From Gammaproteobacteria bacterium (lineage in GTDB: Bacteria; Pseudomonadota; Gammaproteobacteria; Burkholderiales; Burkholderiaceae_C), in NCBI GenBank assembly GCA_030054245.1, contig JASGCH010000001.1, forward strand, positions 1-26,364: a stretch of DNA of 26,364 bases, written 5' to 3'. The position numbers were made by a program, and so were the translations under genes. Numbering within the stretch: position 1 is the first letter of the stretch; each line of letters starts with the position of its first letter. Positions 6,894 through 20,500 of the stretch are shown piece by piece. The notes beneath the pieces were generated by a model. That model ran no database searches, was not told where the DNA came from, and worked only from the letters and a program-made list of their open reading frames with translations.

Positions 6894-7124
6894 AAGACTG
6901 TTGCCCGGCGGCTGGTGCCGCTCGGTGAGCCGTCATCATTACAAGGCTTCCGCGAATGCCTCCAGCGGAATTTACTCAAATGATCATGGTGGGTGCTCCC
7001 AGTCTCGCATATTGAGTATATGCGAGACTGGGAGCGGAAGCGCAATGGATAGCGCAACGAACGGGGCACATACATAACGCAGTCATTTGGCAACCGCGGC
7101 ACCAGCCGATGGTGCAACAGTCTC
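6894..7124 (+). mobile_element. Long-form (231 bp) palindromic MITE
   Basis: Ends AAGACTGTTGCCC / GTGCAACAGTCTC; central 18-bp hairpin at 6995-7035 with loop TGAGT. Confidence 0.9.
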
Positions 7125-7173
7125 AAATAAGTATGGAGCACACTATTTTTTTTTACATTTAACAGGAATTTTT

Positions 7174-8346
7174 ATGACAATATACCACAGTTTTCAAAAA
7201 CTGAGTTTGCTTCTACTGCTTGGTCTTAGTGTTCAAGTGGGCGCACAAACCCAAGGAGTAGAGAAGGACAGTATTTTGGTAGGCTCCATCCAAGATTTGT
7301 CGGGTCCTGGTGCTAGTTATGGCAAACAAGCACGCTTCGGTATGATGCTACGAGTTGACGAAATCAACGAACAAGGGGGTATCCACGGAAGGAAATTGAT
7401 TCTTAAAGTTGAAGACTCAGGGTACGACCCTAAAAAAGCTTTGTTAGCCGCCCAAAAATTGGTCAATCAGGACAAAATTTTTATCATGTTAGCCCACATA
7501 GGCACCACCACCAATTTGGCGACCATGCCAGTGCAGTTTGAGAAAAATGTCATCAACTTCATGCCACTAGCCGCGGCTAGGCAAATGTACGAACCCTTTC
7601 ATAAATTAAAATTCGCTCTGCTCGCGACTTACTATGATCAGATGCGTGCGGCGGTCCCCGTTTTGGTCAAAGAAAAAAACGCCAAAGTCGTCTGCACCTT
7701 ATACCAAGACGATGAATTTGGCTTAGAAGTAGCCACTGGTGGCGAAGACGGCTTAAAAAAACTCGGCATGACTTACGCTGAAAAAACCACCTACAAACGA
7801 GGTGCTACTGATTTTTCTTCGCAAGTTGCCAAATTAAAATCCAGCCATTGTGATTTTGTGGTGCTAGGTACCATTCTTCGAGAAACCATAGGTACCTTAT
7901 CAGAAGCTAAAAAGATTGGATTTAACCCAGTTTTTCTAGGTAGCAATACATCTTATACCGACCTCATTCACAAATTAGGTGGCAAAACGGTAGAAGGATT
8001 TTACGCGACCATGACCACTCAAAATCCCTATACGGATGATATTTCCGAACCTATTCGCCTTTGGGCTAATAAGTACAAAACCAAGTTTAATGAAGATCCT
8101 AATGTGATTTCTGTGTATGGCTATACCATTATGGATATCTTTGCTTTAGCCACCTCAAAAGTTGGCACCGATTTGACAACCGAAAACTTTATCAAAGCCA
8201 TGGATACGCTCCAAATTCCTAGAGACATTTTTGGTGGTCCTGAGATTTCGTTTGGACCTACCAAACGCTTAGGAAGTGATGAGTCTAGGATTTCGCAAAT
8301 TAAAGACGGGAAATGGGTAGCCGTGTCTAATTACACCAAACCTTGA
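7174..8346 (+). CDS. ABC transporter substrate-binding protein, branched-chain amino acid (LivJ/K-like) family
   Basis: Signal peptide, DLSGP, EINEQGGIHGRK and EDSGYDP motifs. Start placed at the ATG at 7174 after ACAGGA; the ORF-track start at 7087 lies inside the MITE. Confidence 0.88.
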   Translation: MTIYHSFQKLSLLLLLGLSVQVGAQTQGVEKDSILVGSIQDLSGPGASYGKQARFGMMLRVDEINEQGGIHGRKLILKVEDSGYDPKKALLAAQKLVNQDKIFIMLAHIGTTTNLATMPVQFEKNVINFMPLAAARQMYEPFHKLKFALLATYYDQMRAAVPVLVKEKNAKVVCTLYQDDEFGLEVATGGEDGLKKLGMTYAEKTTYKRGATDFSSQVAKLKSSHCDFVVLGTILRETIGTLSEAKKIGFNPVFLGSNTSYTDLIHKLGGKTVEGFYATMTTQNPYTDDISEPIRLWANKYKTKFNEDPNVISVYGYTIMDIFALATSKVGTDLTTENFIKAMDTLQIPRDIFGGPEISFGPTKRLGSDESRISQIKDGKWVAVSNYTKP

Positions 8347-8369
8347 TGGGCGGAACCTTTTATCTCTGA

Positions 8370-8607
8370 AAAACTGTTGCACCGACGGTTGGTGTCGCTC
8401 GGTAAACTGTCATCATTACAAGGCTTCCGCGAATGCCTCCAGCGGAATTTACTCAAATGACCATGGTGGGCGCTCCTGATCTCGCATATACTCAATATGC
8501 GAGATCAGGAGCGGAAGCGCAATGGATAGCGCAACGAACTTAAGCACATACATAACGCAGTAATTTGGCAGTTTAGCCGATGGCGTAGCTGTCGGTGCAA
8601 CAGTCTT
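8370..8607 (+). mobile_element. Long-form (238 bp) palindromic MITE with inverted hairpin loop
   Basis: Ends AAAACTGTTGCAC / GTGCAACAGTCTT; 19-bp hairpin at 8471-8513 with loop ACTCA. Confidence 0.9.
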
Positions 8608-8628
8608 TAGCCTGATAGTTCCCAAGGT

Positions 8629-8668
8629 AAGACTGTTGCACAGCTCGTCTGAGTTGTGCAAAGATCTT
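8629..8668. mobile_element. 40-bp mini derivative of the MITE
   Basis: AAGACTGTTGCACAgctcgtctgagtTGTGCAAAGATCTT forms an imperfect hairpin. Confidence 0.7.
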
Positions 8669-8919
8669 TGTTTGATGATACCACATACGCTTTCTACTAA
8701 ACTGTGCACCTGGAGTGCTTATAAAATTGTAACAGAAAAAAACTCCTAGGTCATTGTTCAATTTGCCCCAGTTTTCCACTCCCACAGTTGGAGGATCATG
8801 GGTTCTAGGTTTTGCGTTTAAATAAGAAATCAGGCCCAGAACGGCACATAGCTCCGGTAGCGGGTGGAGATTTGGGAGGGATCTGCGACTTTGATCTTTT
8901 CCCCGTCCAATCAGGAGTG

Positions 8920-8953
8920 TTTATGCTATAATCAAACTTGTAATTCCCTTTTT
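8920..8953 (+). promoter_or_regulatory. Repeated extended -10 motif (TGcTATAAT), copy B
   Basis: tttatgctataatcaaacttgtaattcccttttt, similar to 6374-6408; lies upstream of the RND operon. Confidence 0.45.
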
Positions 8954-9089
8954 GAGACCATTGCGCCACTGACTGTACTGCCAAATGACTGCCTGATATG
9001 CTTCACCCCGGATGAACACCTAAGTATATTCCGCTGGTTGCGCATAGCCTTGTAATTTGGCAGTTCGCCTGAGGTTGTACAAAGATCTA
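8954..9089 (-). mobile_element. Short-form (136 bp) degenerate MITE
   Basis: Degenerate ends GAGACCATTGCGC / GTACAAAGATCTA; internal modules (caaggct, accagcggaat, gcagtcatttggca) in reverse orientation; TTTTT on both sides. Confidence 0.7.
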
Positions 9090-9107
9090 TTTTTAGCAAC
9101 CTTGTCC

Positions 9108-12100
9108 ATGCCACTCATCGCACTGTTGGTACTCAGACCCGTTGCTTCCGTTCTCATTCTTTTGGGCTTGTGCTTTGCGGGTGCTTTAGCTTACTTTCAA
9201 TTGGCGGTAACACCTCTGCCGCACATTGAATTTCCTACGATATCCGTGAGTGCCTATATTCCAGGCGCCAGCCCAGAAACGATGAGCAACACGGTCGCAA
9301 CACCACTGGAACGGTTTTTAGGCACCCTAGAAGGCATTCGCGAACTTTCGTCTAACTCTTCTCAAGGGAGCACCCGTGTATCCATTCAGTTTAATCCTGA
9401 AAAAGATGTAAGCTTAGCAGAGAAGGAAGTACAAGCCGCTTTGCAAGCCGCCAGCTCTTCTTTATCAGCAGATCTACCTAACCCACCCACTTACCGTAAG
9501 GTCAACCCAGCGGATACCCCCATCCTTATTCTGGCTTTGATGTCTTCAGTGGTTAGTAGAGGTGAAATGTACGATTTAGCCACTACGACTTTAGGACAAA
9601 AATTATCCCAAATTCCGGGTGTCGGTCAGGTTACTTTTAACGGCGGTGCCTTGCCAGCCGTGCGCATCGATATATACCCCGAAGTTCTAGAGCTTTATAA
9701 AATATCTTTAGAAGAGGTCCGCCTCGCGGTCTTAGCCAACCATTCAAACCGGCCGAAAGGCATTATAGAACACTCAGACAAAAGTTGGCGTATTACCAGC
9801 AATAGCCATCTGACAAATGCCCAAGACTATGCCTCTATCATCGTTCGTTACCAAGATGAAAAACCCATCTATTTACGCGACTTAGCTCGCGTTTATCAAT
9901 CGGTACAAGATTTAAAAAATACGGGTTTGGTCAACGCCACCCCAGCAATTTCTATTTCCATCTACAAACAAGCCAACGCCAATGTCATTGAGACCATAGA
10001 CAAAATCAAAGAGCGCATGCCTCAATTTCAATCCATGTTGCCAGCAACCGTGGAGTTGCAAGCGGTACTCGATAGAACGACCAACTTGCGGGCATCTATC
10101 AACGAAATGCAAAAGGCTTTTCTATGGGCTTTGTTCTTGGTCATCGCCATCGTAGGCATTTTTTTGAAAAGACTAACCGCTACTGCGGTGGTCATTTTCA
10201 TTGTGCCAGCCACTCTGGCCACCACGGCGGTAACTATGTACTTCTTGCAATTTAGCCTCAATAACTTATCTATTTTGGCTCTGATCATCGCGATTGGATT
10301 TGTCATTGACGATGTCATCGTCGTGATCGAAAATATTTGTCGCAAAATAGATAGGGGCTTGGCTCCTCAAGAAGCAACCATTTCCAGTATGCAGGAAATT
10401 GGCTTTACGATTATAGGTATTAGTCTGGCTTTATGCGCAGTATTCTTACCCATTTTGTTAATGGGAGATATTTTGGGACAACTATTACACGAGTTTTCTG
10501 TGATCATTATATCTAGCGTCATCGCTTCCATGCTGATTGCCATCACCCTCACGCCAGCCCTATGTGCCCAATGGTTATCCAAACGCGCACATCCGCCGTC
10601 AAAACCACGCATAGGCTCAAAAGCTTGGAGAACGATCAGCCATCTAAGCCAAAAAATCTTGTTGTGGCATTTACGACACCAGTATATCGCTTGGCTGGCA
10701 CTCCTTTCCTTAACCGCAGGCAGTTATTTTTTGTTTCAACAACTCGATAAAATATTCTTTCCTCAGCAAGATACTGGACGCATTTTTGTGGTAACCCGAG
10801 CCGAACAAGGTAGTTCTTTCCAAAATATGCAAAGAACCTTAGAACAAGTGGTGGACATCGTACAACAAGACCCCGCCGTTGAGTATGTCAGCGGCAATGC
10901 TGGCAGTGGAGGTACAGCCACCATGGCCATTAGCTTAAAACCGCTGAAAATCAGGCAAGAGTCGGTACAAAAAATCATCAGTCGATTGCGCTTAAAACTC
11001 AATGCCATCGCCGGATTGCGTACTTTTTTAGTAGCCGGTCAAGATATGCGTATGGGAGCAATTGTCTCTAACTCCGAATTTCAGTACACCGTGAAAGCCG
11101 ACAGTTTAGAAGAGCTTCGCCGTTTCAGTCCACTGATTCGTAAAACCTTAGGTCATTTACCTGAACTAACCGATGTGGATTCAGAATACGAAGACAACAC
11201 CACCTTGACCTATTTGCACATTGATAGAGACGCCCTAAGCCGGTATGGCTTAAGCCTCAACTCGGTGTTAGCTTATATGCAGAATGCTTTTACGCAAAGA
11301 CTCATTGCTGTCATATACAACCCACTCAACCAATACCGCGTGGTGCTAGGGGTTGGGGAAAAATACTGGCAGGACGCATCGATCTTAGAGCAGATCAACT
11401 TACCCAATTCCCAAGGTGAATTGGTGCCTCTCACCAAAGTGGTACGCATACAACCCAAATTACAAAGCCAAACCGTCAGCCATGAAGGAGGTGTCCCCTC
11501 TAACACCTTTAGCTTTAATTTGGCTGACCAAGTCAGTTTATCAACAGCTTTAAATGCCATTCGACAAGCCATAGACGACTTAAACTTGCCAAGCTCTATT
11601 CGCAGTATTTACTCAGGGAGCGCCAACGCCTTGCAACGCTCCTTGGCCACTCAACCCCAATTTATAGCTTTGGCCTTAGTCGTTTTATTCATCGTATTGG
11701 GCATACTCTACGGCAATTTATGGCACCCCTTTTCGGTATTATCCACCTTGCCTATTGCCGCATTCAGTGCTTTTTTGGGTTTGTTGGTGAGTAATACCGC
11801 ATTTTCCGTCATTACTTTCATTGCCATGATGTTGTTGGTCGGGAGCTCGATGAAAAATGCCATCCTCATCAACGACAAAACTTTACAGCTCCAACAACTG
11901 GGGTTTTCCATCCACCCAGCAGTCTTTCTCGCCACCAAACAACGCATGCGACCTATGCTCATGACCACTATCGCCTCTAGTTTAACGGCACTACCCTTGA
12001 TTTGGGGGTACAATGAGGGAGCTGAAATCAGGCATCCCTTAGGTTACACTATGCTTATTGGGTTGTTCATGAGCCAATTGATGACTTTATATTTTACACC

Positions 12101-12182
12101 CTGCATCATCGTTTTTGTCGAACAATCCCGCCGCTACTTCAGATCCGTCCAGCGCCATGGCAAACTGTATCTCCCAAGATGA
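9108..12182 (+). CDS. RND efflux permease, MdtB/MdtC-like
   Basis: About 1024 aa with RPVA start, PTYRKVNPADTP, GFVIDDVIVVIENI, KNAIL and RMRPMLMTT. Start placed at ATG 9108; the track start at 9057 is inside a MITE. Confidence 0.9.
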   Translation: MPLIALLVLRPVASVLILLGLCFAGALAYFQLAVTPLPHIEFPTISVSAYIPGASPETMSNTVATPLERFLGTLEGIRELSSNSSQGSTRVSIQFNPEKDVSLAEKEVQAALQAASSSLSADLPNPPTYRKVNPADTPILILALMSSVVSRGEMYDLATTTLGQKLSQIPGVGQVTFNGGALPAVRIDIYPEVLELYKISLEEVRLAVLANHSNRPKGIIEHSDKSWRITSNSHLTNAQDYASIIVRYQDEKPIYLRDLARVYQSVQDLKNTGLVNATPAISISIYKQANANVIETIDKIKERMPQFQSMLPATVELQAVLDRTTNLRASINEMQKAFLWALFLVIAIVGIFLKRLTATAVVIFIVPATLATTAVTMYFLQFSLNNLSILALIIAIGFVIDDVIVVIENICRKIDRGLAPQEATISSMQEIGFTIIGISLALCAVFLPILLMGDILGQLLHEFSVIIISSVIASMLIAITLTPALCAQWLSKRAHPPSKPRIGSKAWRTISHLSQKILLWHLRHQYIAWLALLSLTAGSYFLFQQLDKIFFPQQDTGRIFVVTRAEQGSSFQNMQRTLEQVVDIVQQDPAVEYVSGNAGSGGTATMAISLKPLKIRQESVQKIISRLRLKLNAIAGLRTFLVAGQDMRMGAIVSNSEFQYTVKADSLEELRRFSPLIRKTLGHLPELTDVDSEYEDNTTLTYLHIDRDALSRYGLSLNSVLAYMQNAFTQRLIAVIYNPLNQYRVVLGVGEKYWQDASILEQINLPNSQGELVPLTKVVRIQPKLQSQTVSHEGGVPSNTFSFNLADQVSLSTALNAIRQAIDDLNLPSSIRSIYSGSANALQRSLATQPQFIALALVVLFIVLGILYGNLWHPFSVLSTLPIAAFSAFLGLLVSNTAFSVITFIAMMLLVGSSMKNAILINDKTLQLQQLGFSIHPAVFLATKQRMRPMLMTTIASSLTALPLIWGYNEGAEIRHPLGYTMLIGLFMSQLMTLYFTPCIIVFVEQSRRYFRSVQRHGKLYLPR

Positions 12183-12213
12183 CCCGTCTAAGCTCAATCT
12201 TTACCATCGCATA

Positions 12214-13605
12214 ATGCCTTACTGGATACTCTTTTTTATGGTAGGTACCTTGGTGGCTTGTCAAGTGCCCAAGTTACCCGCACCAGCCGACCTATCCTCC
12301 CCTTTACAATTACGCGCTTATGCCGACAAAATCGTCAATCCACAGCAGATCGACCATGACCAGCTTCATTGGTGGAGACATTTTGGCGACGCAGAACTCA
12401 ACGATTTACAAACGCTATTATCTAAACACTCGCCTAACCTAGAAATTTTAGCGGCTCAAATTCGTGCCGCCACAGCTTTGGTCGCCAGTACCAAGGCGAA
12501 TCCATACCCTGTAGTCAACCTAAGTACTTTCTCTTCTATCAGTAGCAATGCCAATACAGAGGCTTTGGTACGCAACTTTCAACCTAGTATCCCGATTTCT
12601 TGGCAAGTAGATGTCTGGGGACAAAACGACAAAAAAGTCCAACTCAATCAATCTGAAGTCTCCGCCCTACAAGCTGATTTTACCAGTGCCAAACTAGCCG
12701 CACAAAGCGATTTAGTACAGCTTTATTTTAACTTGAGAGCTTTGGATTATCAAACTTACCTCCAAAAGAAACTATGGCTTGCCTACCAACAAGCTGAAGC
12801 CGCGGTCTTGGCAAAACACCGCCTAGGCACAGCCTCTAGCTTAGATGTGGTGGTTTTACAAAAGCAAACGCAAACCCTAGCAACACACATTTTGGACTTA
12901 CAAACCGCGCGCGCACAAACTGAGCACGCCATGGTGGCATTGGTCGGTAAAACCCCGGCTGAACTGTCGATCCCGGCATGGCATGAGGACAAAGCCATGC
13001 AAAGCATTTCCCCCCTCCCCCCACTACCCCAAGAGATTCAAGCCGATATTTTAACCCGGCGCCCAGACTTACAAGCCGCCCAGTGGCGCGTACAAGAAGC
13101 TCATTTACAGCTAGGCATAGTACGCGACACATTCTTCCCTACCGTCAATTTTTCTTTGGCGCTAGGTTATCGATCGAACCAACTCGCCAACCTCGTCAAC
13201 GCCAGCAATACCTTTTGGTCACTAGGAGCCAACTCCTTAACTACCCTATTTGACTCTCAAGCCCGCCAAGCCAATTGGCAAATAGCTTATGCCAACTGGG
13301 AAAAATCCATAGCATTCTACCGTCTGCTCGTGATCAGTTCCTACCAAGCTTTAGAAGACAACCTAGTCAGCTACCAAAACCTCAGCTTAGAAATACCCTC
13401 AAGCCAACGCGCCTTAGAAGCCAGTGAAAAATACTTAAACCTCATCCAACAACAATACCACTTAGGTTATTTAGATGTCTTTGCCCTAACCACCGCCAAA
13501 ACGCAATACGCCAACGACCAGCTCCGCCATTACACAGTACTCAACCGTTTGCGCCTGACTGCCAGCCAATTGCTAGCACAGGGACTTATGTTACCTATAC
13601 CTTGA
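12214..13605 (+). CDS. Outer-membrane efflux lipoprotein (OMF, NodT/OprM family)
   Basis: Lipobox LVAC, SWQVDVWG and LTRRPDLQAA motifs. Start is uncertain (ATG 12214 chosen; ATG 12157 possible). Confidence 0.82.
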   Translation: MPYWILFFMVGTLVACQVPKLPAPADLSSPLQLRAYADKIVNPQQIDHDQLHWWRHFGDAELNDLQTLLSKHSPNLEILAAQIRAATALVASTKANPYPVVNLSTFSSISSNANTEALVRNFQPSIPISWQVDVWGQNDKKVQLNQSEVSALQADFTSAKLAAQSDLVQLYFNLRALDYQTYLQKKLWLAYQQAEAAVLAKHRLGTASSLDVVVLQKQTQTLATHILDLQTARAQTEHAMVALVGKTPAELSIPAWHEDKAMQSISPLPPLPQEIQADILTRRPDLQAAQWRVQEAHLQLGIVRDTFFPTVNFSLALGYRSNQLANLVNASNTFWSLGANSLTTLFDSQARQANWQIAYANWEKSIAFYRLLVISSYQALEDNLVSYQNLSLEIPSSQRALEASEKYLNLIQQQYHLGYLDVFALTTAKTQYANDQLRHYTVLNRLRLTASQLLAQGLMLPIP

Positions 13606-13628
13606 CTAGACCCAAGCTCCCCATACCT

Positions 13629-13855
13629 AAGACGGTAGTGCCATCAGCTGGTGCCGCTCGACGAGCTGTCAAAGTACAAGGCTGGAGGGAACACGCAACC
13701 AGCTTCATTTCCGAAGAGGATCATGGTGGATGCTCCCAGTCTCGCATATTGAGTATATGCGAGACTGGGAGCGAAAGCACCATGGATAGCACAACGAACT
13801 GGAGTACATACATAATGCAGTCATTTGGTAGTGCAGTAGGTTGCGCAACAGTCTT
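13629..13855 (+). mobile_element. Long-form (227 bp) palindromic MITE
   Basis: Degenerate left end AAGACGGTAGTGCC, right end GCGCAACAGTCTT; hairpin at 13732-13772 with loop TGAGT. Confidence 0.88.
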
Positions 13856-13898
13856 CACAATGTTATTCCAACTCTCTAACCATCTCTTCCTCGTTCAT

Positions 13899-13911
13899 GT
13901 GCAACAGTCTT
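13899..13911 (+). mobile_element. Solo right terminal inverted repeat
   Basis: GTGCAACAGTCTT, 43 bp beyond the previous element. Confidence 0.8.
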
Positions 13912-13931
13912 CTTATAGGTGTGTTTGCGGG

Positions 13932-14004
13932 AACTAACCAGCAAGCTCACCGGCGGCCATGGAGCGCAACGGAATTGCCACCGGTGCAACGCCCCTTGTT
14001 ATGT
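13932..14004 (-). other. Integron attC-like recombination site (73 bp)
   Basis: Minus strand reads ACATAAC...GTTGCACCGG...CCGGTGAGC...GTTAGTT, with R''/R' boxes and inner L boxes carrying an unpaired base. The MTase stop TAA lies inside R''. Confidence 0.75.
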
Positions 14005-14925
14005 GCCGGTCTTGAGTTCAAGGTTAGGCTGATAAATCTCTGGCAGACGCTCTTTGATTATTTCTACATATTTTACTTCTATTTCTATGCCAGTAAAATG
14101 ATAACCAAGCTGCTGAGCGGCTACTCATGTTGTACCACTCCCGGCAAACGGATCTAAAACAATGTTCTCTTTAGATTTTGGAACTAATGTAAGTATTAAC
14201 TTTTTATCAACTCCAGTGGCTTGACAGTACAGTGTGCGAATTTTTTTTTCGGATTTATTATAATAACCTTCGAAAATATTCGATTGAAAAGAGCCGTCTT
14301 CGTTGATTGTCTTAAATACACCAACACCTGTTTCTTGAAGCGTTTCCCAATAGTTGTTAAGAAGTGGTTTCTGAACTAACACAATGGATTCCCACTCGTT
14401 CCTGAAACAGGTATGCCAGCCATCCCATTTTTCCGCATCAGGATGGTTCATTTTTTCAAGTTTGCTATTGAGGTTTAGTCCTTTGGGAATACCAGAATGC
14501 CTACGGTAAACCAGAATATCTCGCGTATAAAACCCTACATCTTCCAGCGCAACTTGGATATGCGCCGCTGTCCTAGTGCTATTGAACACAGCAACGGGAG
14601 CGCCATGCTTACAAACCCTAAACAACTCTCGGCCCCATTGTTTACACCAATTGGTGTATTCAATAGTATTTTCCTGATTTCGTTCGTACCATCTAGCATT
14701 GCGTACTCCCCCCGCCAGTCCACTGCCGTAGGGTATATTTTTAACTAAAGTTTTACTGTCTTTGATTCGCTCTAGCCGCCGATTGATTTCCTTATTATCC
14801 CACTTGCGACCAATAAATTCATAGTTGTATGGCGGATCGGTGATACATGCCGCCATGGAGTCATTTGGCATTTCAGACATTACGGATACACAGTCACCTA
14901 AGATTATTTGATCTAAGTAATTCAT
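13999..14925 (-). pseudogene. Type II beta-class N4/N6 DNA methyltransferase, inactivated
   Basis: ITDPPY and VLDPFAGSGTT motifs. An in-frame TGA at 14125-14127 is followed by VAAQQLGYHFTGIEIE...GT*. The HCTVKP motif sits in a shifted frame between two homopolymer indels. Confidence 0.88.
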
Positions 14926-14927
14926 GA

Positions 14928-15640
14928 TCAACCCCTGGTAATAAAGAAGGTTTTTTGGTCGCTGTGGCAACGAAACCATTGATACAGATCAAAACCCGTC
15001 CTTCCCTTTAAATAATCGAATGTTGCCATTCCCGTGTAAACAGACCATCCACCTGCCTTGCAAGCTGTCATTGCAGACGGAAGATTATCTTCTCAAGACT
15101 GTTGCACAACCTCGACGAACTACCAAAGTGCAAGGCTTAGCGGAACGCAACCAGCGGAATTTACTCAAATGTAAATGAGCTGGTGAGTACCGCATAACGC
15201 AGTAATTTGGTAGTGCAGTCGGTTGTGCAACAGTCTTTTCTCGAAGACATAGAAACACAGGTCGATAACCATTCTCTTTCAGAAGGTATCCATACTGCTT
15301 GAACTTTTTCAAAGTTCCAGAATCACCGGAACCTACTCTATGTGTCAATAGCGTCCGTTCCGAGAACCAAGTAGCACAGTTCGTTACCACCCAATCTTAG
15401 AGCGCCGCTGAAATAAGAGCAAGTATTCTTGCAAAGTTCTACCACCAGAAGTTGCCAACACATTCCTAACTGCCTTCCCCAAAACTGTTTGTTTTCACGC
15501 TCCAACTCTTGCGTGATGCCAAATATCTCCATCAAAACATCTGTGGAGTCATCGTCATCCTCATAAACCTTATCGGAGAAGTTGCCTTGATATTTTTTGA
15601 GGATGTCTGAGAGATTTTTGTCAATGTCACTATGAGTCAT
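14928..15640 (-). pseudogene. Putative type II restriction endonuclease, broken by a frameshift and a MITE insertion
   Basis: AAGGA RBS then MTHSDID...DAIDT; frameshift near 15340 to RVGSGDSGTLKKFKQYG...LCLRE; MITE; then DNLPSAMTAC...FITRG*. The stop lies 2 bp before the MTase ATG. Nuclease function is inferred from context. Confidence 0.7.
15095..15237 (+). mobile_element. Short-form (143 bp) palindromic MITE with 5-bp target duplication
   Basis: Perfect 17-bp terminal repeats AAGACTGTTGCACAACC / GGTTGTGCAACAGTCTT; TTCTC at 15090-15094 and 15238-15242. Confidence 0.93.
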
Positions 15641-15665
15641 AGTTATCCTTTTTGATTTTATGGTC

Positions 15666-15678
15666 AAGACTGTTGCAC
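15666..15678 (+). mobile_element. Solo terminal inverted repeat 25 bp upstream of the nuclease pseudogene
   Basis: AAGACTGTTGCAC. Confidence 0.8.
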
Positions 15679-15779
15679 CTCGCGTGAGAGCGCGAAAGGT
15701 ATGCGTTCCTTTGCCTGAACGAGGGGACAAGCAAGAGCCGTGGGAGCAAGAAAACGACCACTTTTTTGCGTAATCTGGT

Positions 15780-16949
15780 TTAAAAGCTATAGCGATACAC
15801 CCGGGTATTTCTTGCTACAAAGCCCATACCTTGGTATAATTTGTGGGCTATTTCCCGGTCCGGTCTGGAGGTTAAATCTACATCCACTGCCCCCCATTCT
15901 TTAGACAGTTCCAAGGCTTTTGAGACTAATTTCTTGCTTATACCAAAACCACGCATTGTCTGATCAACCACCACATCGTTGATATGCGTGCGCAAAGCCG
16001 TTAGGTTAGCGTGTTGAATCAAGTTCAGCATTCCGACAATTTCCCCTTGATAGCGTGCCACTATTAAAGTTACATTCGAATTGCCTAGAAGCGTCTTTAT
16101 GTAGCCCAAGCTAGGGGGAGGGCGACTCGACAATTGCGGTATCAGGCTTTGGGAAGCCTGCCAAAATTCTTCGGCTTGCTCGGGTTGCACAGCAGATATT
16201 TCAAAGAGATCCGCCCATTTCTGGGTTAATATTTCTAGGTCATCTCTGGTATTAACCCCTCTCCAAGTCACATTTTCTTTAGGCATGCGTAGGCTACGCA
16301 CGGGCCATGCGCGTTCTCGAGCCAAACTGGCTATATCCGTCAAATAGTATTCATTTTGTTGGTTGTGGGGTGTCAGTAGAGGAATGAGTTGTTGCAGACA
16401 GCCCTTCGGTGCACACAAAATACCCGTATTGATGTGGTTGATGGTTTTTTCCTCTGGACTAGCGTCTTTTTCCTCTACGATGGTTTGAATATTGCCCAAG
16501 CGGTCTTCAACCACCCGACCATATCCATAAGACTCGTACACCTCAGCGGTTAAAAACACTAGGCTATTTTCTTGTTGTGATTGCTGTACCAGTTGGCGGC
16601 ACCAAGATAGGTCGATGAGTGGCACATCCCCGTATAACACCAAACAATGGTTTGCCGGATCAAGTTTGGCTAAACTAGCCCGCACCGCGTCTCCAGTGCC
16701 TCGGGGTACGGGTTGCTCAACAAATTGAATAGGCTCAAACTCCTCCAGCGAGGAACGCACTTGTTGTTGCTCAAAACCCACCACCACCAACAAGTTTGCA
16801 GGGTGTAATTTTTGGGCAGTTCGGATGACATGATGAAGTAACGGTATTCCCGAAAGCTCGTATAAGACTTTAGGTAAACTCGGCTCCCCTGCTTTTTGCA
16901 TACGCTTGCCTTGTCCAGCCGCTAAGATCACAATATCTAAGCCATTCAT
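15780..16949 (-). CDS. Fusion of a GlmU-type GlcNAc-1-P uridylyltransferase domain and a C-terminal GNAT acetyltransferase
   Basis: LAAGQGKRM, GTGDAV, YGDVP, YGRV, IVEEKD, EYYLTD and GVN in aa 1-about 245; HINDVVVDQTMRGFGISKKL...LYQGMGF in the C-terminal 140 aa; no hexapeptide repeats. Confidence 0.85.
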   Translation of the reverse strand: MNGLDIVILAAGQGKRMQKAGEPSLPKVLYELSGIPLLHHVIRTAQKLHPANLLVVVGFEQQQVRSSLEEFEPIQFVEQPVPRGTGDAVRASLAKLDPANHCLVLYGDVPLIDLSWCRQLVQQSQQENSLVFLTAEVYESYGYGRVVEDRLGNIQTIVEEKDASPEEKTINHINTGILCAPKGCLQQLIPLLTPHNQQNEYYLTDIASLARERAWPVRSLRMPKENVTWRGVNTRDDLEILTQKWADLFEISAVQPEQAEEFWQASQSLIPQLSSRPPPSLGYIKTLLGNSNVTLIVARYQGEIVGMLNLIQHANLTALRTHINDVVVDQTMRGFGISKKLVSKALELSKEWGAVDVDLTSRPDREIAHKLYQGMGFVARNTRVYRYSF

Positions 16950-16958
16950 ATACTCCCC

Positions 16959-17945
16959 CTACCCCTGCATTTGTTGCCACATTTGCAAATCCCGTTCAGC
17001 CGTCCAGATTCTGGGGTGCTTAATGCCACTTGCTTCATCATAAGCCCGACTGACATCAAAAGGCAAACAATGTTCATACAAAAAAACCTTAGCAAACACT
17101 GGGTCCATTTGTTGTCTGGTAAGTTCCATCGCTTGTTTAAGATTGAGTTGTTGTTGGACGGCTTGTTGGGCACTTTGCCACAAAATCTCAATCCACCTTT
17201 TGGTAAAATCTAGTCCTCGATTGACTTCTACAGACCCGCTTAATGCCGTACCTCGCCCTGGCACCAAGTGTTCCGGGGACAATAATCGCAATTGCTCTAA
17301 AGTATGGGGCCATTCTGCCAATTGGGCATCCCCAGTATAAACACCGGCGTCGCACTCTACCAAATCCCCACTAAACAATACCCTTTCACTTTCCAGCCAA
17401 ACAATCGTATCACCACGCGTATGGCCAGCCCCTGGGTGCCAAATTTCTACCGTGATACCCCCTAAATCCACACGCAGGGCGCTATCTCTGCCAACCGCTT
17501 TGGCACTGCCGCCAATAACCAAGGTTGGATAAGTCAAGCCTGGGATACTATCCACCCCACGAAACAACCTAGGAAACCTCTCAATTTCACTGCGCATATC
17601 TTGTGCGCCGCGTTCTTGAATCATTTCCCAAGTGGGGTAACTGGCAATAATCTCCGACAAGCCTTCGGCAACAAATCCTTGAGCACCCAATACCCGCACC
17701 GCATGGTAATGCGATAAAACAATATACTTAATCGGCAAATCACTAATTTGGCGAATTTCTTGGATCAGCTTTTGGGCCATCTCTGGAGTCGCAGTACAGT
17801 CGCAAACCAAAATAGCCTTTTGACCTATAATGACCCCTGAATTAGGGTCACCTTCGGCGATATAAGCCCAACAATGGGGGCTCATCTGAACAAGTTTAAT
17901 ATTTTGTTCACCCCAATCCGCTTGACTGGCAAATGTTTTATTCAT
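16959..17945 (-). CDS. MBL-fold metallo-hydrolase
   Basis: SHYHAVR (variant HxHxDH), GHTRGD and LFSGDLVE motifs; probably co-transcribed with the GlmU-GNAT gene (9-bp gap, GGAG RBS). Confidence 0.85.
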   Translation of the reverse strand: MNKTFASQADWGEQNIKLVQMSPHCWAYIAEGDPNSGVIIGQKAILVCDCTATPEMAQKLIQEIRQISDLPIKYIVLSHYHAVRVLGAQGFVAEGLSEIIASYPTWEMIQERGAQDMRSEIERFPRLFRGVDSIPGLTYPTLVIGGSAKAVGRDSALRVDLGGITVEIWHPGAGHTRGDTIVWLESERVLFSGDLVECDAGVYTGDAQLAEWPHTLEQLRLLSPEHLVPGRGTALSGSVEVNRGLDFTKRWIEILWQSAQQAVQQQLNLKQAMELTRQQMDPVFAKVFLYEHCLPFDVSRAYDEASGIKHPRIWTAERDLQMWQQMQG

Positions 17946-17972
17946 AAAAGTCCTAACTACAATGATCCATAA

Positions 17973-18007
17973 AAGACGGTTGCACCATCGGCTGGTGCAA
18001 CCGTCTT
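17973..18007. mobile_element. 35-bp mini MITE (perfect 14-bp arms)
   Basis: AAGACGGTTGCACC atcggct GGTGCAACCGTCTT; the same T-to-G change is present in both arms. Confidence 0.85.
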
Positions 18008-18158
18008 TTCATTATATCCTAAAAACTGTTGCTTCCTGCACACTTCACTCACCATGTCTGCAAACCACCTTCTCCTATAGGCTAAACCCGCCCTAAGGCA
18101 GTGATTGGTAGCCGGCCGCCATGCCACAACGCTGATAACCCCAGCATACTCCTTCGAT

Positions 18159-19985
18159 TTAGCTGTCTCTTGAGGCTTTTTTTCTCTCATGCCCTTTTAA
18201 ATGTTTTTTGCGTAGCCGAATATGTTTAGGTGTCATCTCGACCAATTCGTCGTCTTCAATAAATGCCACCGCAAACTCTATACTTAGATCTAATGGAGGA
18301 GTAATTTTGATAGCATCCTCTTTCCCACTGACCCGAAAATTGGTCAATTGTTTGGTGCGTGTGGCGTTAACTACCAAATCATTGTCTCGACTATGAATGC
18401 CCACAATCATGCCTTCATACACCCGATCACCATGGGTGACAAACATCCGTCCTCTATCATCTAGTTTACCTAAAGCGTAATTGACCACCACCCCCTCATC
18501 CATGCTGATAAGTACACCGTTTTTGCGACTAGGAAGCTCGCCTTTGTAGGGGGCGTATCCATGAAAAATACTGCTACTTAAACCAGTGCCCCGTGTAATA
18601 TTCATAAATTCGGTGTGAAATCCGATCAGTCCTCGTGCGGGAATTAGATATTCTAGGCGCACTCGGCCGATAGTATCCACTTGCATATTCGCCAATTCTC
18701 CCTTCCTTTCGCCTAAAATTTGCATGAGCGTACCTTGGCTTTGTTCCTCAATGTCTATAACCAGCAACTCTATGGGTTCATACATTCCATCAGCGCGCGG
18801 TTGTAAGACTACGCGTGGTTTAGAGACCGCTAGCTCGTAACCTTCTCGACGCATATTCTCCATCAGTATGGTGAGGTGTAATTCTCCTCTCCCAGACACC
18901 TCGAATACCCCGTCCTCCTCGGTTATATGCATTCTTAACGCCACATTGGTTTGTAGTTCTTTCTCTAAGCGATCGCGCAGATGACGGCTGGTCACAAATT
19001 TACCATCCTTACCTGCGTACGGAGAATTATTCACACAAAAGTGCATACTTAAAGTAGGAGGATCGACCTGCAAATTGGGCAAGGGTCTTGGATCGTCTAT
19101 ATCCGTAATGGTTGCCCCTATGGAAATTTCTTCCAAGCCACTGAGCAATACTATTTCTCCCGGACCAGCTTCTTCTATAGAGACTCTTTCTATACCCTGA
19201 AAATGCCAAATTTGACCGATTTTTCCATTATTGGCCACTCCACCCACACCGTGCACCACAGACACCAGACTGTTGGTTTTGACAATCCCTTGGCTGACTC
19301 GACCGATGGCAATGCGTCCGACATAGCTAGAGTAATCTAAGGAACTGATCTGCAATTGTAAAGGCGCGTGTTCATCACCTTGAAATGTACTAGCATGCCC
19401 CACAATCGTGGCAAATAATGGATCTAAATCAGTACCCCACGCTTCACCATCTGTACCTCTTTCTAAGGAAGCCCAGCCATTAAGACCTGACGCATAGACG
19501 ATAGGGAAATCTAATTGTTCCACCGTTGCCTGTAAATTATCAAACAAGTCAAATACCTCATTGATCACTTGATCAATGCGCACCCCTAATCTATCCACCT
19601 TATTAATCACGACGATCGGTTTAAGACCTAAAGCCAAAGCTTTTTGTGTGACAAAGCGTGTTTGGGGCATAGGTCCCTCCACCGCGTCTATCAACAGCAG
19701 TACTCCGTCCACCATCGACAAAGCTCGTTCAACTTCACCACCAAAGTCAGCGTGTCCTGGAGTGTCTACAATATTTATCCTAATCTCGTTCCAGTCCACG
19801 GCACAATTTTTGGCTAAGATGGTAATTCCGCGTTCTTTTTCCAAAGGATTACTATCCATAATGCGTTCTTGTGACGCTTGATTCTTGCGTAGGGCTCCGC
19901 TTTGTTTCAGCAGTTGATCGACTAAAGTGGTTTTACCATGATCGACATGGGCTATGATGGCTATATTTAATATTTTATTGGACAT
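18159..19985 (-). CDS. typA: Translational GTPase TypA/BipA
   Basis: [39 protein letters not shown] and [11 protein letters not shown] motifs; start at MSNKIL (ATG 19985). Confidence 0.97.
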
Positions 19986-20102
19986 AGAAAAAGATTGATT
20001 GAACAAGCTCGAAAAATGTTGATTACCATTATTTTCCGATGGTTATTGGGTTTTCAGGGTGTCTGATAACATCCTTCTGTAGCTCATTCCCATAATGAGG
20101 AT

Positions 20103-20500
20103 TTGGCACCGACGGCTCACCGAGCGGCGTAGCCGTCGGTGCCAAGGTCTCTTTATATGCGAGAATAGCGAGCCTAGGTGTAACCGCGGCGTAGCCGATG
20201 GTGCAACAGTAAGACTGTTGCACAACTGGTTACACTGCCCAATTACTGCGTTATGTATGTGCCTCAGTTCGTTGCGCTATCTATTGCGCTTCCGCTTCCA
20301 GTCTCGCATATACTCAATATGCGAGACTGGAAGCGCCACCAGCTCATTTACATCCGAGTAAATTCCGTTGGTTGCGTTCGCTCCAGCCTTGTAATTATAC
20401 AGCTCACCGAGCGGCGTAGCCGATGGTACAACAGTCTTACAGTCTTAACGCAGTAATTTTACAGTGTAACCGACGGCAAAGCCCTAGGTGAAACAGTCTT
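20103..20500. mobile_element. Nested cluster of MITE copies and fragments
   Basis: 15-bp-arm hairpin at 20103-20145; right ends at about 20151, 20201-20210 plus 20444-20446 (split), 20438 and 20500. Confidence 0.85.
20211..20438 (-). mobile_element. Long-form (228 bp) MITE inserted into the terminal repeat of another copy
   Basis: Ends AAGACTGTTGCAC / GTACAACAGTCTT; ACAGT duplicated at 20206-20210 and 20439-20443; 19-bp hairpin at 20293-20335. Confidence 0.92.

Follow-up and report, generated by a model that had tools for sequence, protein, structure and literature searches.

Reverse-complemented loops and mirrored stem changes in the central palindrome of a bacterial transposable element family

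Replication template switching is documented to leave compensatory changes, multiple compensatory changes and loop inversions in RNA genes (Monttinen & Loytynoja 2022, PMC8794818), and such template-switch, or quasipalindrome, mutations were also treated by Loytynoja & Goldman (2017, PMC5453318). Here we describe changes of these kinds in the central palindrome of a miniature inverted-repeat transposable element (MITE), four long copies of which are found in a 26,364-nt stretch of bacterial DNA (GenBank assembly GCA_030054245.1, Gammaproteobacteria bacterium, order Burkholderiales; contig JASGCH010000001.1, positions 1 to 26,364, forward strand). This whole stretch is referred to as the window. 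It lies on the longest contig of a metagenome-assembled genome (MAG) of 1.58 Mb in 270 contigs, 55% complete and with 44% G+C, and the comparison presented below is one of paralogous copies within this assembled 55% of a single genome. As in template-switch mutations, one event in this MITE would mirror a change in the opposite arm, make several compensations at once or invert the loop, and perfect stems would be kept without stepwise selection. The events are read here from paralogues, whereas the cited studies relied on ancestral reconstruction at orthologous sites.

In the survey of rRNA genes, loop inversions were rare and affected mostly 4-nt, partly self-complementary loops (PMC8794818), whereas this MITE inverts a fully asymmetric loop of 5 nt, and does so in 10 of 60 paralogues of one genome. 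Hairpin-mediated inversions of 4-50 bp are pervasive in plastid DNA (PMC12371153), and for minute inversions of plastid hairpin loops the same paper cites Kelchner & Wendel (1996) and Kim & Lee (2005). As far as these plastid cases are summarised there, they resemble the MITE in that a short spacer between inverted repeats flips recurrently and homoplasiously and is fixed per locus; they concern single-copy loci compared across species, whereas here we deal with dispersed copies of a bacterial transposon in one genome. The mechanism proposed below is a known one, so that the value of the locus is that of a clean additional case and not of a new principle. The MITE family has not been described before.

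Among bacterial repeats, Correia/NEMIS elements of Neisseria, ERIC and the Rickettsia palindromic elements (RPE) are likewise small, noncoding and present in high copy number, bounded by terminal inverted repeats (TIRs), intergenic, co-transcribed and strongly folding. The family described here has no sequence similarity to them and differs in a 5-bp target duplication rather than TA, in its central 19-bp palindrome, in its modular mosaic build and in being found in no other genome searched. Three further classes were considered and ruled out. Repetitive extragenic palindromes and their mosaic elements (REP/BIME) with RAYT transposases are bare, imperfect palindromes of 20-40 nt that have neither TIRs nor target duplications, whereas the palindrome studied here sits inside an element with TIRs and target duplication, and the assembled 55% contains no Y1_Tnp. 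An enzyme-driven inverton would need a segment long enough to synapse between its inverted repeats and a dedicated invertase close by, whereas the segment inverted here is 5 nt long and the window holds no recombinase. For a known structured RNA, Rfam 15 gave 0 matches to the window at the gathering score.

We consider that the palindrome evolves mainly by DNA-level copying, through replication template switching within the hairpin, and assign this reading a probability of about 0.62. At replication, the nascent strand would fold or switch template across the hairpin and one arm would be recopied from the other. A change in a single arm would then vanish or reappear mirrored in the opposite arm, and occasionally the 5-nt loop would be copied as its reverse complement. 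The anatomy of the element, the number and spread of flips, the statistics of pairing, the private doubles and the losses of the hairpin are shown directly by the data. That template switching rather than cruciform processing is responsible, and that each flip arose in place, is what we infer; cruciform resolution and replication template switching fit these data alike and cannot be told apart by them.

Four hairpins in the window and the element around them

Occurrences of the 10-mer TCTCGCATAT and its complement in the window (10 matches versus 1.2 by chance) form four palindromes, centred at 7013-7017, 8490-8494, 13750-13754 and 20312-20316. Stems starting with GCTCCCAG at 6995 and 13732 consist of 18 perfect pairs and a T.G closing pair, and those starting with CGCTCCTGA at 8471 (variant CTCCTGA) and with CGCTTCCAG at 20293 (variant CGCTTCC) comprise 19 perfect pairs each. 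All arm differences among the four hairpins are mirrored in the opposite arm. A sequence-only reading of the window, made earlier by a model from the letters alone, had described four hairpins of 18-19 perfect pairs in three stem variants with mirrored changes, and we recovered the same coordinates and arms. The hairpin is bordered by different sequences on its two sides, GATCATGGTGGG to the left and GGAAGCGCAATGG to the right, and these give the orientation of a copy independently of the palindrome. Oriented in this way, the loop is TGAGT in three copies and, as that reading had also noticed, its reverse complement ACTCA is confined within the window to the copy at 8370.

The hairpins are the centres of elements of about 230 nt. 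Copy 1 (6894..7124, + strand, 231 nt) is a full-length profile match with the TIR AAGACTGTTGC.../...GCAACAGTCTC, and its hairpin (6994..7036, + strand) carries the canonical loop TGAGT at 7013-7017. Copy 2 (8370..8607, + strand, 238 nt) is the flank-sister of copy 1 (Shimodaira-Hasegawa-like approximate likelihood ratio test, SH-aLRT, 90); in its hairpin (8471..8513, + strand), the flipped loop ACTCA at 8490-8494 is the reverse complement of the family loop. The hairpin of copy 3 (13629..13855, + strand, 227 nt) is located at 13731..13773 on the + strand, with the canonical loop TGAGT at 13750-13754. Copy 4 (20211..20438, - strand, 228 nt) sits in the end of another copy and is flanked by the 5-bp target duplication ACTGT. 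Its hairpin (20293..20335, - strand) is distinguished by a C:G to T:A double change found in this single copy (CGCTTCC/GGAAGCG), and its loop (20312-20316), ACTCA on the + strand, corresponds to TGAGT once the element is read in its own orientation.

Full copies are 225-243 nt long. Their TIRs begin with AAGACTGTTGCAC, and the two ends match over about 28 nt, AAGACTGTTGCACCATCGGCTGGTGCCGC, as determined on 46 full copies. With up to 2 mismatches allowed, 1067 occurrences of the 13-mer end were counted in the genome. Exact 5-bp target duplications flank 8 of the 46 full copies (0.11 expected) and 3 more copies match at 4 of 5 positions, and none of the 46 has an exact flanking duplication of 4 bp or 6 bp. 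A profile built from the four window copies gave 654 matches, 81 of them near full length, which cover 4.2% of bases and correspond to 564 non-overlapping loci in 1.58 Mb; the family thus accounts for 4% or more of the assembly. Because these are noncoding units of about 230 nt with TIRs of about 28 nt and 5-bp target duplications, the hairpin-bearing repeat is assigned to MITEs, and it is an undescribed noncoding family.

No Pfam content was found in the elements. At the gathering threshold of Rfam 15 the window has 0 matches, and by E-value copy 1 gives only sub-threshold similarities to miRNA-like and generic hairpins. The assembled 55% of the genome contains no transposase of the DDE_Tnp_1, rve, Y1_Tnp, IS110, DDE_3 or IS256 type and only two tyrosine recombinases, and no recombinase is encoded in the window. 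When the element was compared by BLAST with 40 relatives and with 300 genomes from the host's family, only GC-rich matches of 20-28 nt at chance level appeared. Exact searches with the 25-nt core gave 0 matches in two public contig collections (genome contigs and metagenome contigs), as did a search of metagenome contigs with the 23-nt end, and a literature search with end and arm sequences returned unrelated primers only. By these comparisons, the family is apparently confined to one uncultured betaproteobacterial lineage.

Loop orientation and stem changes across the genome

To compare loop orientation between copies, we used the loop to orient 116 good hairpins and classed the flanks with separate profiles for the left half and the right half. 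Classified hairpins comprise 53 canonical and 10 flipped ones. When only copies with enough flank on both sides are taken (n = 60), 50 are canonical and 10 flipped, and a 1:1 ratio is rejected (p = 1.6e-7). The flip is therefore not unique to the copy at 8370. In all 10 flipped copies the loop is exactly reverse-complemented and both flanks are collinear with those of canonical copies. Flips occur in the stem variants CTCCCAG, CTCCTGA/CTCCTAA, CGTTGG, TCTATGG and TTGGCTGG. One flip affects a loop of the variant GGAGT; every flip-bearing variant is found unflipped too.

On a tree built from flanks only, the distribution of flips needs 8 changes, compared to 9.3 for shuffled labels. This scatter, together with the 50:10 ratio, indicates that the flip is recurrent but rare and that no flip/flop is running. 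As assembled, flips appear to be fixed per locus, and no locus was found assembled twice with opposite loop orientations, the search yielding one unrelated flank duplicate only. By our own arithmetic from 10 flips in 60 copies, the loop flips at about 1-13 times the per-site substitution rate, where the lower figure is based on the median terminal branch (0.15) and the upper on the rate of private changes in flanks (0.0126 per site). Perfect 17-bp stems are present in 9 of 10 flipped copies and in 24 of 50 canonical ones (p = 0.017). Cleaner stems would be expected in flipped copies if the flip event recopies an arm.

Linear single-stranded DNA (ssDNA) genomes of the parvovirus type have terminal palindromes that invert through hairpin-transfer replication, and their flip and flop forms are about equimolar. 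The hairpin described here shares with them the existence of two reverse-complement forms of a palindrome. It is, however, located centrally in a chromosomal element among housekeeping genes, and its two forms stand at 50:10, for which reason the class of terminal flip/flop hairpins was ruled out and the analogy drawn by the sequence-only reading finds no support.

Alignment of 58 hairpins shows pairing in 95.9% of cells, and both partners vary in 11 of the 20 pairs (78 cells), a level that was reached in 0 of 500 shuffles. When partners are slid by 1-3 columns, just 2-14 cells remain changed on both sides. The covariation seen in the window thus extends to the aligned genomic copies, among 29 of which 13 different perfect 18-bp stems could be distinguished. 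Perfect covariation in a repeated hairpin should nevertheless be taken with caution, as it is not by itself proof of a selected RNA structure.

Changes private to one copy are informative in this respect. The private rate in flanks predicts 27.7 changes in stem columns, and 24 single changes plus 8 in four complementary doubles were observed. Private stem changes therefore accumulate at the flank rate, which indicates that recent change is not purged by selection. The four strictly private complementary doubles compare to 0.058 expected, about 70 times chance (P = 4.5e-7). All four are transversions (C:G to G:C, C:G to A:T, A:T to C:G and T:A to G:C), so no wobble intermediate was possible.

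The palindrome can also be lost. About 10 otherwise complete copies are without a hairpin; the breakpoints lie at its base and represent at least 4 different junctions, of which the commonest has TGGG microhomology and two keep a remnant of the 5' arm. Examples in the assembly (G000) are C253:2584, C49:1190, C75:7747, C103:5955, C219:5574, C28:1672, C28:1921, C215:3797 and C33:3826. Because of the arm remnants, hairpin-less copies are understood as deletions and not as the ancestral state. The losses look like slippage deletions of the palindrome, and their occurrence at several junctions implies that it misbehaves during replication.

Clean flipped stems, private doubles, recurrent flips and hairpin losses are the expected footprints of a palindrome recopied across itself. 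The proposal of the sequence-only reading that the hairpin is inverted or re-templated as a unit is strengthened in this respect, by 10 flips among 60 copies in at least 5 stem variants as well as by the stems and doubles. About 60 copies of one palindrome, dated by their divergence, represent a natural mutation-accumulation experiment within one genome, in which loop inversions, templated doubles and hairpin deletions are seen side by side and their rates can be compared with point substitution.

Alternatives to template switching in place

A number of observations weigh against the template-switch reading, and they are given here with the alternatives on which they bear. Flips are read from paralogues, and the direction of change is fixed by an orthologous locus for none of them. 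Resolution of the flank tree is low; it has only 2 well-supported branches, which force at least 3 flip changes. All flips rest on assembled contigs of a fragmented MAG, to which assembly error may have contributed. In addition, flipped copies are closer to contig ends than canonical ones (median distance 696 versus 2001 nt; p = 0.05), five of the ten being within 450 nt of an end.

An artefact of assembly or of strain mixture would be favoured by this proximity, by the 270 contigs and 55% completeness of the MAG and by the five or six hairpins cut by a contig end. The other five flipped copies, including the one in the window, lie 959-8480 nt inside contigs, and assemblers use k-mers longer than the 19-bp arms in their final rounds. 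An exact reverse complement is unlike the pattern of sequencing errors, and the flanks on both sides continue collinearly with canonical copies. We regard such an artefact as very unlikely. The cut hairpins are those in which contigs C4, C108, C111, C147 and C221 (and C79) end inside the central hairpin. Palindromes thus seem to break the assembly, and the breaks could be due to a drop in coverage or to heterogeneity within the population.

There is only a slim chance that flipping continues among living cells, so that one locus would occur in both orientations within the population. If true, a flip or a hairpin loss in elements co-transcribed in a fixed orientation would alter the fate of neighbouring mRNAs, and the hairpin would act as a switch that works locus by locus and needs no enzyme. 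Within-population heterogeneity would in that case underlie both the contig breaks at hairpins and the excess of flipped copies close to contig ends.

The mosaic build of the family has to be considered next. Distances between left flanks and between right flanks are uncorrelated (Mantel r = 0.06, not significant), and a correlation with the stem variant exists for the right flank alone (r = 0.25). Stem variants follow the flank tree weakly (23 changes versus 26.3 with shuffled labels), and some hairpins are chimeric, combining the 5' arm of one variant with the 3' arm of another, e.g. on contigs C26, C267 and C154. In 13-17 copies, the left half continues at the hairpin core into a short end module, and the outer arms remain unpaired. 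In the window, copies 1 and 2 are 91% identical in the left flank and 72% in the hairpin (12 of 43 nt differ); three stem pairs and the loop are different between these flank-sisters, and the hairpin of the flipped copy may have come from another copy in antiparallel register. Mosaicism and chimeric hairpins indicate that copies exchange sequence, so some flips could be imports.

Exchange between copies would mean that gene conversion or copy-choice recombination carries the hairpin as a cassette between the family's palindromes, of which there are at least 100, and that palindromic arms let a donor pair in antiparallel register and deliver the loop flipped. The mosaic features listed above all speak for it. 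Homology in antiparallel pairing would, however, be limited to 19 bp, the assembly (55% complete) contains no copy that could have donated the four complementary doubles, and cleaner stems of flipped copies are not predicted. As its mechanism is also template switching, exchange differs mainly in the location of the template. We consider it unlikely as the main source of the observed changes, and prefer recopying within the hairpin.

Junctions at the core bear on a further possibility, that a protein recognises the 25-bp core (arm, 5-nt spacer, arm) as a recombination site, either an internal pair of transposon ends or an Xer-like site, at which enzyme-driven exchange would shuffle and re-orient element halves. 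Left halves of many kinds are fused to one short right module, with the joint precisely at the core. At six loci or more, one arm is directly replaced by a genuine element end (..GTGCAACAGTCTT), beside GCATAT-TGAGT-ATATGC, and at these loci the inner 13 nt of the arm match the end and its flank at 12 of 13 positions. The arm also resembles the XerC half-site of dif, a resemblance that serves as a lead and not as a test; a search for dif-like sites found none. Linkage is low throughout the element and not just across the core, spacers at sites of tyrosine recombinases usually measure 6-8 bp, more than the 5 nt seen here, and the assembled half of the genome offers no transposase of the six families mentioned and only the two tyrosine recombinases. 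An enzyme-recognised core is accordingly the most improbable of the explanations considered. The long element as a dimer of two half-units, with abutted ends making the hairpin, is kept as a secondary idea and not claimed, its support being limited to the 12/13 identity at six loci.

Finally, the structure may be selected in RNA or ssDNA, if pairing is needed by co-transcribed hairpins or by transposition intermediates; stem variants and the flipped loop would then mark subfamilies derived from different master copies. Elements between tandem genes are co-oriented with these genes in the ratio 88:23 (p = 4e-10), those at 6894-7124, 8370-8607 and 20211-20438 in the window included, and are therefore probably co-transcribed. 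This suggests co-transcription with a polar effect, such as protection of mRNA 3' ends, or counter-selection of the opposite orientation. When the element is folded as RNA, its ends pair to an outer stem, and the central hairpin is accompanied by two small side hairpins (z = -8.8 for copy 1, and -10.7). Six double changes common to several copies are all transitions, and on the sense strand mismatches of the G.U type exceed those of the A.C type (43 versus 25; p = 0.04).

A constraint on pairing cannot, however, yield the exact reverse complement of an unpaired loop, and the flips, with their 8 changes, do not form a clade. Private single changes in the stem occur at the flank rate, and private doubles are transversions that could not pass through wobble pairs. 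Selection on structure, which the sequence-only reading had offered as its alternative, is thus not needed to account for the stems, yet co-orientation and wobble mismatches continue to speak for it. We consider it distinctly unlikely as the principal explanation. Given the shared transitions and the gene co-orientation, an RNA or ssDNA structure may have been selected in those lineages that amplified, beside the template switching that we favour. Transition bias as a sign of wobble-mediated selection appeared strong when counted by cells (224:55 in stems, 835:901 in flanks). Counted by event type, there are 10 transitions and 6 transversions, and the private doubles belong to the latter class, for which reasons the argument was dropped.

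Gene context and smaller features of the family

Neighbouring genes in the window are ordinary and include a type III restriction-modification system, Fic, a binding protein, AcrB/OEP, BipA, TruB, RbfA and IF-2; the best match of BipA (72% identity) is in a betaproteobacterial MAG. Several elements begin about 24 nt past a stop codon (e.g. stops at 8346 and 13605). A scan for promoters and terminators around copies 1 and 2 gave counts not above those in shuffled sequences, and no U-tract follows the hairpin. One tyrosine-recombinase gene (G000:C236:3731-4213, locus L030; 322 aa, Xer-like by size) is located about 800 nt from a degenerate hairpin at C236:2884, which is probably a coincidence given the density of elements.

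Shorter members of the family are also present in the window. The one at 15095..15237 (+ strand, 143 nt) is without the central module, hairpin included, and has the 5-bp duplication TTCTC at both sides. A short end module at 20155..20211 (+ strand) consists of a solitary hairpin arm (ATATGCGAGAATAGC...) up to the TIR, and modules of this type make mismatched, chimeric hairpins at other genomic sites. The end sequence AAGACTGTTGCAC occurs 19 times between 3228 and 23513 of the window (0.8 expected) and about once per 1.5 kb genome-wide, a density like that of uptake sequences. Many of these occurrences are solo ends or tiny end-to-end palindromes, such as the one at 17973-18007 between two convergent-looking gene ends.

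Outer ends of one copy share copy-specific variants, as in AAGACGG/AAGACGG, GAGACCTTTG/GAGACCTTTG and CACCGAC/CACCGAC. Among the 46 full copies, this was noticed in C81:9847, C25:616, C232:2683, C1:4584, C94:2052 and C55:2878, and in the window copy at 8370-8607. Ends about 200 nt apart thus co-vary within a copy. The small left-hand hairpin (6942-6982, compared with 13663-13717 and 20351-20398) exists in alternative self-complementary versions, TTCCGC...GCGGAA or GCTGG...CCAGC, and also as mixed, unpaired chimeras, repeating the pattern of matched arms at a smaller scale.

RPEs of Rickettsia are tolerated in frame inside genes. In the family described here, a frame without stops extends over the whole element (75-76 codons) in the copies at 6894-7124, 13629-13855 and 20211-20438, with no evidence for a gene, and about 20 elements genome-wide are located inside long open reading frames.

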